Shown: positions 34,740-44,041 of the stretch, piece by piece | Layout: the number at the start of each line of letters is the position of its first letter | Position numbering within the stretch: the first letter of the stretch is position 1 | Source of the DNA: Parachlamydiales bacterium | GTDB lineage: Bacteria; Chlamydiota; Chlamydiia; Chlamydiales; Rhabdochlamydiaceae | Direction of reading: 5' to 3' | Length of the DNA: 64,000 nucleotides | NCBI GenBank assembly: GCA_963705295.1 | Contig: OY970065.1 | Location: 896,001 to 960,000 of the forward strand | Program-made: the position numbers and the translations under genes | The notes under the pieces: generated by a model | What the model was told of the DNA's origin: nothing | The model's database searches: none | Seen by the model: only the letters and a program-made list of their open reading frames with translations

Positions 34740-35807
34740 CTATCTCGAGACTGCAACGCCAATAGCCGAGTCGGCGCACCCATAATAGAGAAGCCATTTT
34801 CCCTTGAAATGGACAAGCCCTTGGATGAAGACGGTTCCGTCTTTATATTGTCCGCTCCGTTCATACGGTCTTTCGGGTTTAAAGATGTGTTGGTTGCTTC
34901 TGGAAACGACCCGAGTGGGATCTTTGGGATCTAGAACCAATTGTCCCGCAGCATAGGCTCCCGGGTTAATGTTAGGATCTCCATTTTTTTTAGAATTTTT
35001 TCCATTATAGAGAAATATGATTCCGTCCTTCGTCAGAACAGCTGGAGGGCCTGGCTCGACTAAATCACTATCAAACTTTCCTGGGCGTGGGCAAAGGATG
35101 GGATCTGGAAGCACCTCCCACGAGATCAAATCATCTGATTTTGCAACCTGGATGTTCCCTTCTCCCCAATACATCCAATATTTCCCTTGGATTTTCGTAG
35201 CAATCAAATGATCTCCTTGCCGACGACAAACAATCGAACCCGATTTCGAGTGGACCCGTTCACAAGGCTCAAATGCATATCCGTGCTTTTTCCAGGTGAT
35301 GAGATCATCTGAAGTCGCAATTCCAAGTACAGCGATGTCTCGATTCCACTGGGTATAGGTCATGACATAGCCCCCATCCTCCGTCTCCACGATACGAGGA
35401 TCCTCGCAACCACCTGGCCATTCTGAAAACTTTTGCCGATCATGATCGGGATACAAAACCGGTGTCGGTCTTCGGATAAAATGCAAACCATCTTCACTAA
35501 CAGCCAGGCCCAGCCTCGATGTGTGATGACCAATTCCTTCACCAAAATTATCCTCCGCTCGATAGATTAGATAAACCTTGCCACCCCGTACCACAGCCCC
35601 CGGATTAAAGGCATGATCGCTTTCCCACCGCACTTTATGCTGTTGAATCGGACAACAAAAAACCGACCCCGGATTGGGTTCCAAAATAGGATTCACTTTA
35701 TCTGCTCTCTCAAACCCCTTCACTTTCCATTCTGTAGAATCGGCAGAAGAACACCCGAAAACGAAGAAAGCTACGGATGCCATCAAGTGTTTTATTATCT
35801 TTCTCAT
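34740..35807 (-). CDS. Glycoside hydrolase family 130-like lipoprotein
   Basis: AFNPGA, LIYRAED, GGCEDPRI, VEPGPP, YYGCADS; lipobox-like FVFGC. Confidence 0.85.
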   Translation of the reverse strand: MRKIIKHLMASVAFFVFGCSSADSTEWKVKGFERADKVNPILEPNPGSVFCCPIQQHKVRWESDHAFNPGAVVRGGKVYLIYRAEDNFGEGIGHHTSRLGLAVSEDGLHFIRRPTPVLYPDHDRQKFSEWPGGCEDPRIVETEDGGYVMTYTQWNRDIAVLGIATSDDLITWKKHGYAFEPCERVHSKSGSIVCRRQGDHLIATKIQGKYWMYWGEGNIQVAKSDDLISWEVLPDPILCPRPGKFDSDLVEPGPPAVLTKDGIIFLYNGKNSKKNGDPNINPGAYAAGQLVLDPKDPTRVVSRSNQHIFKPERPYERSGQYKDGTVFIQGLVHFKGKWLLYYGCADSAIGVAVSR

Positions 35808-35896
35808 AAGTTCAATTTTTCCATATTAACGAAAATAAGTCGAACAGAAAGTTTTTAATTGAACTATTTTAAAATTCTTTTTTTTGTATCTATTCT

Positions 35897-42353: not shown

Positions 42354-43238
42354 ATGAAATCATTTTTAGTTGGTCTTTTCTTGTTACCATCTCTTTTTTC
42401 AGCGGAATATCAGTATGAGCTGGCTTTAGGTTCCATGTTCCGAGACGAAGCTCCATATCTGAAAGAATGGATCGAGTACCACCGAAGGGTGGGTGTTGAC
42501 CATTTTTGGCTGTACGATAATTGTAGTTGGGATGATTGGGAATCTGTTTTAAAACCGTATATTGAAGAGGGGATTGTCGAGGTGTTTGATTGGAAAGCTT
42601 CGGGAGAAGACAAAACAATTCGGAATGAAAAATTCCCGATGTCGCTTCAAATGGACGCTTTTTATAACTCTCTTATGATGAGTCGAGGGAAAGCAAAATG
42701 GTTTGGCTTTATCGATCTCGATGAGTTTATTTTGCCGATGCGCAATAAAACAGTACCGGAGTGCTTGAATGAGCATTATTCTGAAGCTGCGGCCGTTTTC
42801 GCATCATGGTTGAATTTCGGTACAAGCAAAGTTTTTCTCAAGGAAGGAGAATCGATCCTATTAAATCTAACGCGATGTGCCTTGAGAGGAAACATAAAAA
42901 ATGGAAATGGAAAGAGTCTCTTACGTCCGGATTTTGTCGATTTAGGGAAATTGTTTTGGCACCATTATGCCGCCTTAGTCGATGGGGCCGTTTATATGGA
43001 TGGGGATAAAAATATTCTCCATTTCAACGGGTCTCAAATGGACTGGAACTGGAAATTTCACGACAAATACATACGGATTAACCATTACTTTACCCGCGAT
43101 GAAAACTTTTTCTCAAAAAAACGGATTGCGGTATCCAAAAATGGTTCTTATTCCGTTGCACAACTGGAAGATCAAAATCAACAAATGAACTTAACGTCCG
43201 ACAAAAAGATGATAAACTTTCTTAGGAGCCAACCATGA
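42354..43238 (+). CDS. Glycosyltransferase family 92-like, paralogue of 40672-41517
   Basis: MFRDEAPYLKEWIEYH, FIDLDEF, KSLLRP, INHY; signal peptide. Confidence 0.85.
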   Translation: MKSFLVGLFLLPSLFSAEYQYELALGSMFRDEAPYLKEWIEYHRRVGVDHFWLYDNCSWDDWESVLKPYIEEGIVEVFDWKASGEDKTIRNEKFPMSLQMDAFYNSLMMSRGKAKWFGFIDLDEFILPMRNKTVPECLNEHYSEAAAVFASWLNFGTSKVFLKEGESILLNLTRCALRGNIKNGNGKSLLRPDFVDLGKLFWHHYAALVDGAVYMDGDKNILHFNGSQMDWNWKFHDKYIRINHYFTRDENFFSKKRIAVSKNGSYSVAQLEDQNQQMNLTSDKKMINFLRSQP

Positions 43239-44041
43239 AAATACTTTTGTGCATATGCGTATTTCTTTCTTCCCTTTGCTATTCCATTCAGAAAAACAGC
43301 CTTCTACATCATGCCAAAATCATCCATTCGCAATATGGTGAAGAGGGGATTTTGGACGCCATTTTAGAGCGTCTGAATATCCATGACGGTTTTTTTGTTG
43401 AATTCGGCGGTTGGGATGCCGCGTATTTATCCAACACCCGATTTCTTGCAGAACGGGGCTGGGGAGGAGTTTTTATTGAGGCAGATGGAACACTCTTAGA
43501 GCAAGCACGAAAAAATTGTCAGAATTTTCCCAAAGTGCAATGTCTGAATGAATTTGTCACGTGGAACTCAGCCCGTTCGAAAGGAAAAACCTTCGATCAA
43601 ATCGCCGATCAATCATTCCCCAACCAAGAAATCGATGTTCTTTCGATCGATATCGATGGCCCAGATTACCTAATTCTAGAGAGCCTCAAACGGAAACCTA
43701 AAATCATCCTCATCGAAGGCGGATTCAGTTGGTCTCCCTCCTTAACTGCCCGGGTCCCTGATTCGATCGCTAAAACCGATAGCCTTAATCAATCCCTATC
43801 CACCATCTTTAAAATTGCGAAAAAGAAAGGATACATCCCCGTCTGCTTCACCATTAATACCTTCCTTGTCCGAGAAGATCTAGCCGCACCCTTCGCCGAT
43901 ATCAAAAATGATCCCGAAACCCTCTGGCTCGACTCTTGGTATTACTTCTCCGAGAAAGCCCCCTATCTCATCGAATTCACCCGCAATCTCCGTGCGACCC
44001 ACCCCTTGATCAAGCTCTACGACAATTTCCCCACACCGTGA
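43235..44041 (+). CDS. FkbM-like methyltransferase, signal peptide
   Basis: SQYGEEG, FVEFGGWD..SNTR, GVFIEAD, LSIDIDGPDY. Confidence 0.8.
   Translation: MKILLCICVFLSSLCYSIQKNSLLHHAKIIHSQYGEEGILDAILERLNIHDGFFVEFGGWDAAYLSNTRFLAERGWGGVFIEADGTLLEQARKNCQNFPKVQCLNEFVTWNSARSKGKTFDQIADQSFPNQEIDVLSIDIDGPDYLILESLKRKPKIILIEGGFSWSPSLTARVPDSIAKTDSLNQSLSTIFKIAKKKGYIPVCFTINTFLVREDLAAPFADIKNDPETLWLDSWYYFSEKAPYLIEFTRNLRATHPLIKLYDNFPTP

Follow-up and report, generated by a model that had tools for sequence, protein, structure and literature searches.

Nine adjacent genes for glycosyltransferases, methyltransferases and glycoside hydrolases in a Parachlamydiales bacterium appear to form part of a glycan-building kit whose enzymes are predicted to work outside the bacterial cytoplasm. 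They occupy positions 34740..44041 of the 64,000-nucleotide stretch analysed here (the window), which corresponds to positions 896001-960000 of contig OY970065.1 (assembly GCA_963705295.1); the source is this one contig of 2.13 Mb, with a completeness rating of 94.7%. Each of the nine genes carries an export-type leader, and Sec export and cleavage of the encoded enzymes is, in our judgement, very probable. As called from sequence, the leaders are specific to a clade of environmental Chlamydiota and Babelota, and the contrast with leaderless homologues recurs in unrelated folds. On a wider reading, for and against which the case seems to us evenly balanced, these two unrelated phyla of protist parasites would have fitted signal peptides to the enzymes of a glycan cassette that large viruses also carry, giving an extracytoplasmic Golgi-like compartment in which host nucleotide sugars, S-adenosylmethionine (SAM) and NAD(P)H-dependent conversions yield a methylated A-type coat; the present genome would then be wholly reliant on GDP-fucose of the host, none of which would enter its cytoplasm. 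In bacteria, reactions that use nucleotide sugars or SAM are held to take place in the cytoplasm, and sugars are transferred in the periplasm from lipid-linked donors. We found no description of a Sec-exported glycan-enzyme trait in the literature within our reach, which mostly leaves out subscription journals, and supplementary tables of genome papers may list such leaders without comment.

The Pfam calls for the nine open reading frames (ORFs) agree with a preliminary description of this DNA, which had listed nine contiguous genes of the same glycoside hydrolase (GH), glycosyltransferase (GT) and methyltransferase families, the FkbM-like match being weak (PF05050, E 5.5e-5, barely past its cut-off). 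The genes and their left flank are as follows.

33426..34739, + strand: PIN-PhoH gene flanking the island on the left; relatives carry different cargo at the site 3′ of it.
34740..35807, − strand: GH130, BT3780-like (beta-1,2-mannosidase type); PF04041; leader with a possible lipobox Cys.
35897..38224, − strand: GH95, alpha-1,2-fucosidase/alpha-L-galactosidase family; PF22124, PF14498, PF21307; leader; frame open to 38272.
38347..39072, + strand: class I SAM methyltransferase; PF08242; leader; divergent from GH95 and convergent with GT6.
39075..39800, − strand: GT6, metal-dependent (DxD), probable blood-group-A-synthase type; PF03414; leader of about 18 residues.
39818..40675, − strand: GT11, alpha-1,2-fucosyltransferase-like; PF01531; leader.
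40672..41517, − strand: GT92-like (GT-A) protein a, GT92a; PF01697; weakest leader of the nine.
41521..42261, − strand: Methyltransf_24 SAM O-methyltransferase, MT24, first gene of the unit with GT6, GT11 and GT92a; PF13578; leader.
42354..43238, + strand: GT92-like protein b, GT92b, divergent from MT24; PF01697; leader.
43235..44041, + strand: FkbM-like methyltransferase; PF05050, weak; leader; ribosome-binding motif upstream.

Strands are mixed, and gene order and strand indicate four transcription units: GH130-GH95 (−), the class I methyltransferase (+), GT6-GT11-GT92a-MT24 (−) and GT92b-FkbM (+). The GT11 start overlaps the GT92a stop and the FkbM start overlaps the GT92b stop; in five genes the probable start lies 3′ of the first in-frame start codon (GH95 38224, class I methyltransferase 38347, GT6 39800, MT24 42261 and GT92b 42354). 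The GC content of the nine genes ranges from 0.37 to 0.47 (genome mean 0.442 ± 0.036). Neither promoter-like sites (17 versus 21.2 in shuffles) nor terminators (12 versus 11.2) are in excess; a single 11/12 promoter-like match, ending at 38234, lies upstream of GH95. That the carrier is an intracellular chlamydia, as had been supposed, is supported by its nearest GT6 relatives and by six TLC nucleotide translocase matches in the genome, three of them near full length.

Leaders were called by a hydropathy and charge heuristic with controls rather than by a trained predictor. By this measure an uncharged hydrophobic segment lies close to the N-terminus of each of the nine proteins (best hydropathy over 8 residues 2.14-3.58; n-region charge 0 to +3), together with one or more cleavage-type sites of small residues within positions 14-22; this bears out the earlier observation of a signal-like N-terminus on each gene; the four N-termini quoted for it are present in the sequence. 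By the same heuristic the n-, h- and c-regions end before the mature domain, as in Sec/signal peptidase I substrates, and the alignment of GT6 with the cytoplasmic BoGT6a starts just at the end of the leader. A relaxed call marks 21% of the 1805 genome ORFs as signal-like; the run of nine such genes is the longest in the genome, and a run of at least nine was reached in 3 of 5000 shuffles. The internal control, eight soluble enzymes of the genome's Wzx/Wzy O-antigen cluster (360-371 kb), lacks leaders. About 20 other transferases in the genome are leader-bearing (GT2, GT4, GT6, GT10, GT11, GT23, GT25, GT32, and methyl-, acetyl- and sulfotransferase-like), MT24 has three leader-bearing paralogues elsewhere, and a signal peptidase I gene lies inside the window.

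Among homologues, in overlapping sets gathered with leader-bearing or chlamydial queries, an N-terminal leader extension is present in 108 of 120 GT6 proteins (the best 120 of 1299), with A, G or S at −2 in 97 and L, V, A or I at −4 in 92 of the 108, and with a net charge of +1.1 before the hydrophobic core and −0.3 after it. Lipobox variants occur in GT32 and a few GT6 proteins of relatives. Counted by label over 78 loci (from the best 80 of 97 matches, a few with unresolved starts being dropped), GT6 leaders are found in 28/30 Chlamydiota, 6/6 Babelota, 24/25 unlabelled entries and 10/20 from other phyla. A quick GT6 tree splits 72 rows, 69 of them with a leader and with Chlamydiota and Babelota interleaved, from 10 leaderless rows of free-living bacteria (Shimodaira–Hasegawa-like approximate likelihood-ratio test, SH-aLRT, 97). 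The leader-positive 'Verrucomicrobiota' and 'Pseudomonadota' probably reflect label differences rather than true exceptions: the three 'Verrucomicrobiota' genomes have 3-5 TLC translocases each, and the 'Pseudomonadota' genomes are of 1.0-1.2 Mb with the twin-secretin layout of named Dependentiae. In these TLC and secretin searches, made for 45 of the 50 loci that bear no Chlamydiota title, TLC at E ≤ 1e-40 marked chlamydiae but not the seven named Dependentiae/Babeliales, so that this marker did not label every leader-clade genome as intracellular (14/35). The class I methyltransferase has a leader in 67/78 close versus 1/41 distant homologues and the FkbM-like methyltransferase in 43/58 versus 2/62, the split being set in both cases at drops in score, and 105 of the 150 nearest GT92 cluster representatives have one. 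These clade-wide contrasts in GT6, methyltransferases and GT92 agree with the preliminary view that normally cytoplasmic enzymes bear export-type leaders, which are retained across at least eight unrelated folds or families.

We think it very improbable that the leaders are relics or anchors that stay uncleaved in the membrane, with the enzymes held at its cytoplasmic side and using imported donors for O-antigen or capsule synthesis. The chemistry of the whole set, including the NAD(P)-dependent Gmd, Fcl and GalE of relatives, is classically cytoplasmic, donors could enter through the genome's three clear EamA carriers and one weak match, and export of the enzymes remains a prediction; yet the positive n-region, the short core, the cleavage-type site at the domain boundary, the non-positive charge after the core and the lipobox variants all speak for cleaved leaders, as do their persistence over so many unrelated families and their absence from the genome's cytoplasmic O-antigen glycosyltransferases.

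Viral cassettes and the chlamydial clusters draw on a shared, shuffled gene pool around GT6 (GT11, FkbM-type methyltransferase, GT25, Gmd, Fcl and several unnamed families); the island of cyanophage P-SSM2, for instance, reads gmd-epimerase-GT2-GT11-GT6-GT25. Unlike the chlamydial and Babelota proteins, none of 47 viral GT6 proteins (45 loci; domain-anchored count) has a leader, in keeping with the synthesis of viral proteins in the host cytoplasm. On the viral contigs (loci L179-L224) unnamed partner families of the chlamydial clusters are also present, all on one strand around GT6. The proposed system would further resemble giant-virus glycosylation in being borne by a parasite and drawing on host metabolites (PMC9614988).

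The chemistry is best defined for GT6, which is likely of the A-antigen-synthase type. The window protein matches PF03414 at 141 bits and shares the DxD motif and the catalytic Glu (Glu192 of BoGT6a) with 120/120 homologues. Its fucose-accepting pocket is complete (His122, Gly124, Thr134, Tyr153, Trp189, a small residue at A7, and Lys231) and near-invariant in the 120 homologues, A7 being Ala in 112 of them. Small residues at positions 266/268 of human GTA denote a GalNAc rather than a Gal donor; the window GT6 has Ala/Gly there, as BoGT6a does, and the homologues have Gly in 120/120 and Ala or Cys in 119/120. The structural model has a mean predicted local distance difference test score (pLDDT) of 87.9, with a low-confidence leader. 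The residues that let GT6 accept 2′-fucosylated galactose have been named, and PaGT6 of Parachlamydia converts H antigen to A antigen in vitro by GalNAc transfer (PMC3516806). The window protein is like human GTA, BoGT6a and PaGT6 in family and pocket, and like PaGT6 and GTA in having DxD; it is unlike BoGT6a, which is leaderless and uses NxN, and unlike GTA, a type II Golgi membrane protein. PaGT6 is described as a minimal catalytic domain, and the sections of that report drawn on here leave a signal peptide unmentioned (PMC3516806). Another GT6 site, at contig positions 373997-375700 and in genus relatives, lies beside topA and O-antigen ligase, with GT6 adjoining lipoprotein GT32 genes; the aligned topA-site GT6 copies of the genus have lost the catalytic Glu or its segment, with one exception.

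For GT11 (PF01531, 63 bits), a PDB sequence search returned two chance matches only. Its model (pLDDT 91.5) matches AtFUT1, FUT8, NodZ and POFUT1, with AtFUT1 as the top fold match (E 2e-8, template modelling score, TM, 0.57), which supports a GDP-fucose transferase fold. The canonical GT11 donor motif is HxRxGD; in the window protein and its leader-bearing homologues the Arg is kept, His has become Gln and GD is absent, and the Arg and a WW motif are invariant in 16 aligned homologues. One chlamydial GT11 of a relative (L060:1432-2358) has no hydrophobic leader and a canonical donor motif; its long polar N-terminal extension may be a type III secretion signal. Across 60 relatives, which as kin are not independent, GT11 is present in 4 of the 5 with an intact DxD/WHDE GT6 versus 6 of the other 55, and this tracking fits GT11 feeding GT6; GT11 is present in 0/18 genomes of the same genus.

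The GT92-like proteins match PF01697 (GT92a 105.7 bits, GT92b 79.6 bits) and are 43% identical to each other. GT92a shows a weak, distant match to one solved GT92, the galactan synthase 8d3t (E 3e-4 over 112 residues), and GT92 occurs in 21/60 relatives, 6 of the 21 with GT11. PDB matches of MT24 are O-methyltransferases, weakly matched, and a PDB sequence search with the FkbM-like protein gave 0 matches. The A-antigen-type chemistry proposed in the preliminary description is supported by the GT6 pocket residues and the fucosyltransferase fold of the GT11 model; of its Gal, then Fuc, then GalNAc order, the GT11-GT6 steps fit and the Gal-first step by GT92 is weak on the figures just given.

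The sequence comparisons suggest that the nine genes are a recently assembled island of a lineage-wide, genome-wide exported glycan kit. Their cargo is absent from the same site 3′ of phoH in all 20 relatives compared, out of 56 that match phoH, two of the stretches being short. One relative has at this site a different glycan cluster in which every gene is leader-bearing. The stretch within 6 kb of GT6, compared over 67 loci of the leader clade, contains GT2 in 57, GT11 in 18, GT11 with GT92 in 5, and GH95 or GH130 in none, many of the loci being cut by contig ends. Cluster content is hypervariable among relatives, like that of surface-antigen loci, and in five same-genus loci leader-bearing GT6/GT32 adjoin an O-antigen ligase/GT4/ManC cluster. 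The lack of conserved synteny and the four transcription units speak against a single conserved operon.

GH130 reaches 459.6 bits with NCBIfam NF058598, under its cut-off of 550; its best PDB match is 5a7v (E 2e-112), and it is closest to the beta-1,2-mannosidase BT3780. GH95 matches 7kmq and 4ufc, the latter with a hydrophobic leader in its own sequence, and would fit H-type fucose only; the GH95 enzyme FucOB barely cleaves A or B antigen (PMC10063614). The alpha-GalNAc-ase families GH109, GH27 and GH36 were not found in the genome, nor was FucI, other routes of fucose catabolism not having been searched. GH95 occurs in 2/60 relatives, both with GT11 elsewhere in the genome. We infer that GH95 and GH130 entered the island as exported hydrolases of an ordinary kind and make no matched eraser.

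The co-evolved, self-contained Gal-Fuc-GalNAc write/erase pathway that the preliminary description saw in these nine genes is accordingly improbable. GT6, GT11, GT92a and MT24 do form one tightly coupled unit, and the 5/67 loci with GT11 and GT92 beside GT6, the presence of GT11 in both GH95-bearing relatives and the joint occurrence of GT92, GT11 and intact GT6 in 3/60 relatives lend it some support. Against it stand the four transcription units, the mixed GC content, the 20 relatives without the cargo, the 0/67 for the hydrolases and GT2 as the usual neighbour of GT6; the bonds are also unmatched, GH130 being mannosidase-like, FucOB hardly acting on A antigen and no alpha-GalNAc-ase family having been found. 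The synteny comparison proposed at the outset thus speaks against conservation of the locus as a unit.

The genome has four fucosyltransferase-family genes (two GT11, one GT10 and one GT23). The search for GDP-fucose synthesis suggested in the preliminary description found no Gmd over the cut-off in the genome (best 69 bits versus 415), and neither a Fcl-level match nor Fkp nor MetK was found in its single, 94.7% complete contig; the Gmd, Fkp and MetK family searches each gave positives in control genomes. Since Gmd, Fkp and MetK were not found, GDP-fucose and SAM are probably host-derived. In chlamydiae ATP, NAD and SAM are taken up through the inner membrane, and molecules of this kind must therefore pass through the periplasm. 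The genome encodes leaderless forms of GalE, ManC and a sulfate adenylyltransferase/adenosine 5′-phosphosulfate kinase. MetK is found in 3/35 leader-clade genomes versus 7/10 others (one of the ten with an unscored GT6 start), and Gmd in 27/60 relatives. In 20 of the 27 Gmd loci, selected in part for their long open frames, leaders are present on 7 of 23 gmd genes; these lie among leader-bearing glycosyltransferases, and the leaderless ones for the most part accompany GT4, ManC or a leaderless Fcl. In relatives, leaders are also found on Fcl, GalE and UDP-glucose dehydrogenase, at the following loci.

Leader-bearing gmd: loci L159, L160, L161, L163, L164 and L170.
Leader-bearing fcl: loci L161, L164, L084:3760-4761 and L098:3762-4754.
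Leader-bearing galE: L070:7667-8728 and L018:6658-7737.
Leader-bearing ugd: L238:15375-16949.

Two further clusters of this genome touch on donor use. A second leader-bearing cluster at contig positions 996354-1000694 (FkbM, GT11, FkbM, GT23 of the NodZ/FUT8-like type, and GT10) places genes of three fucosyltransferase families next to one another, in a genome without a detected GDP-fucose route. At 835818-841948 lie a leader-bearing GT4, two sulfotransferase-like proteins, two MT24 and a GT25; the genome's 3′-phosphoadenosine 5′-phosphosulfate synthesis genes are leaderless.

We consider it somewhat probable that the enzymes act in the periplasm or on the envelope, on a glycan of the cell's own, and propose the following hypothetical sequence of events, in which (i) the proteins would cross the inner membrane by Sec and be clipped by signal peptidase I, some family members taking the lipoprotein route; (ii) the donors GDP-fucose, SAM and probably UDP-GalNAc would diffuse in from the host; (iii) the exported enzymes would extend and cap an envelope glycan, be it a flipped O-unit, lipopolysaccharide or a surface glycoprotein, much as the Golgi finishes a precursor from the endoplasmic reticulum; (iv) GT11 would add alpha-1,2-fucose to a galactoside and GT6 then alpha-1,3-GalNAc, producing an A-type cap; (v) the GT92-like enzymes would add other sugars and the methyltransferases would O-methylate; and (vi) GH95 and GH130 may trim H-type fucose or host glycans. 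The envelope is favoured because lipoprotein variants imply tethering, because O-antigen ligase lies close by in the genus, and because variability is O-antigen-like. At contig positions 729271-733808, a collagen-like gene and a beta-propeller lie beside a leader-bearing GT2-TPR-PLOD glycosyltransferase and an inverse-autotransporter-like gene, and may represent an acceptor/enzyme pair.

Alternatively, after Sec export the enzymes could pass by type II secretion to the lumen of the vacuole or to the host cytosol, there to make a free or vacuole-lining polysaccharide or to remodel host glycans. We regard this as rather unlikely, given that lipoprotein versions of GT32 and GT6 would remain tethered, that the position beside O-antigen genes is conserved in the genus and that the hypervariable cluster content resembles surface antigens. 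It would nevertheless accord with the type II components found (GspE/GspF and secretins), with the use of this route by CPAF, Ptr and CT311 in C. trachomatis (PMC6717882), and with the activity of GlgA in the lumen on host UDP-glucose (PMC4829429); a host compartment would more easily supply NADPH for exported Fcl, and with FucI not found, GH95 may edit rather than feed.

The periplasmic or envelope reading, and the host supply that goes with it, face several difficulties. Export is predicted by heuristic, and the leader counts come from kin and are not independent. The compartment and the acceptor are both deduced, the acceptor being only a proposal. GspE and GspF are present in the genome and secretins in 27/27 leader-clade genomes tested, a presence that does not separate periplasm from lumen. 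Donors of 400-750 Da, plus NADPH for exported Fcl, must reach the compartment, and no nucleotide-sugar carrier was found in the genome, where one weak TPT-family match falls on an EamA protein. With GalE and ManC cytoplasmic, some donors could be self-made and exported by a further carrier. Of nine relatives matched by the window's GT11, seven have Gmd (three leader-bearing, four leaderless), and the four with leaderless Gmd indicate that host supply is not universal.

The nearest precedent for the envelope reading is the lumenal GlgA. In the inclusion lumen of C. trachomatis, type III secreted GlgA synthesises glycogen from a host-derived donor (PMC4829429), and the enzymes described here would be like it in being chlamydial nucleotide-sugar glycosyltransferases that act outside the bacterial cytoplasm on a host donor. 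They are unlike it in that GlgA makes one homopolymer by way of type III secretion, whereas here many unrelated glycosyltransferase and methyltransferase families bear Sec-type leaders and a branched, methylated heteroglycan is predicted; a GlgA-type system has no cleavable Sec leader and an alpha-glucan product, and the nine genes have leaders and belong to non-glucan families.

Wzx/Wzy O-antigen clusters such as that of E. coli O86 use a cytoplasmic GT11 and then GT6, with flippase, polymerase and donor-synthesis genes alongside. The island is like O86-type clusters in its predicted blood-group-like caps via GT11 then GT6 and in belonging to hypervariable surface-glycan islands, and unlike them in that all nine genes have leaders and, as the preliminary description had noted, no wzx/wzy or nucleotide-sugar synthesis gene is among the nine by Pfam; the genome's Wzx/Wzy cluster is separate and leaderless. 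In the eukaryotic Golgi lumen, Leloir glycosyltransferases and methyl- and sulfotransferases act across a membrane from the compartment where donors are made, an arrangement that the proposed system would share; it differs in having cleavable-type bacterial leaders instead of type II anchors, and no SLC35-type carrier over the cut-off was found in the genome (PF03151 search only).

Elsewhere in the window, an AlbA_2/RecG-C protein with a short exact repeat near its C-terminus lies between the island and ileS (44454-46334, +), and AlbA_2/RecG-C genes are present at the same site in two relatives. A Fe/Mn superoxide dismutase with an export-type leader is encoded at 27405-28046 (+), and a further run of leader-bearing genes at 4941-14029 includes a BNR/sialidase-like protein (7107-8099), a PBP4-like peptidase and a choloylglycine-hydrolase-family protein. 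A nicotinate phosphoribosyltransferase and isochorismatase-family (nicotinamidase-like) pair at 60251-62232 (+) represents a NAD salvage route. Outside the window, a 9235-residue ORF at contig positions 1920323-1948138 (−) resembles a modular polyketide synthase.

In summary, the locus contributes an A-synthase pocket, a link between GT11 and GT6, four fucosyltransferases without a GDP-fucose route and a leaderless viral counterpart. If true, a Sec-exported, multi-enzyme Leloir pathway would be a new way of building a bacterial glycan, and host metabolite pools would reach the parasite envelope in working amounts. With single-domain enzymes that are small and probably soluble, these claims are open to direct testing, and a large part of the exported proteome of environmental chlamydiae and Dependentiae that is so far unexplained would gain a testable function. 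The finding bears on the movement of GT6 among viruses, bacteria and vertebrates, as this clade already joins the metal-dependent DxD form to a secretory leader. Protists have no ABO immunity, and the strict keeping of an A-synthase pocket in their parasites suggests another role for the A cap, which may be, for example, host lectin binding or phage-receptor variation.

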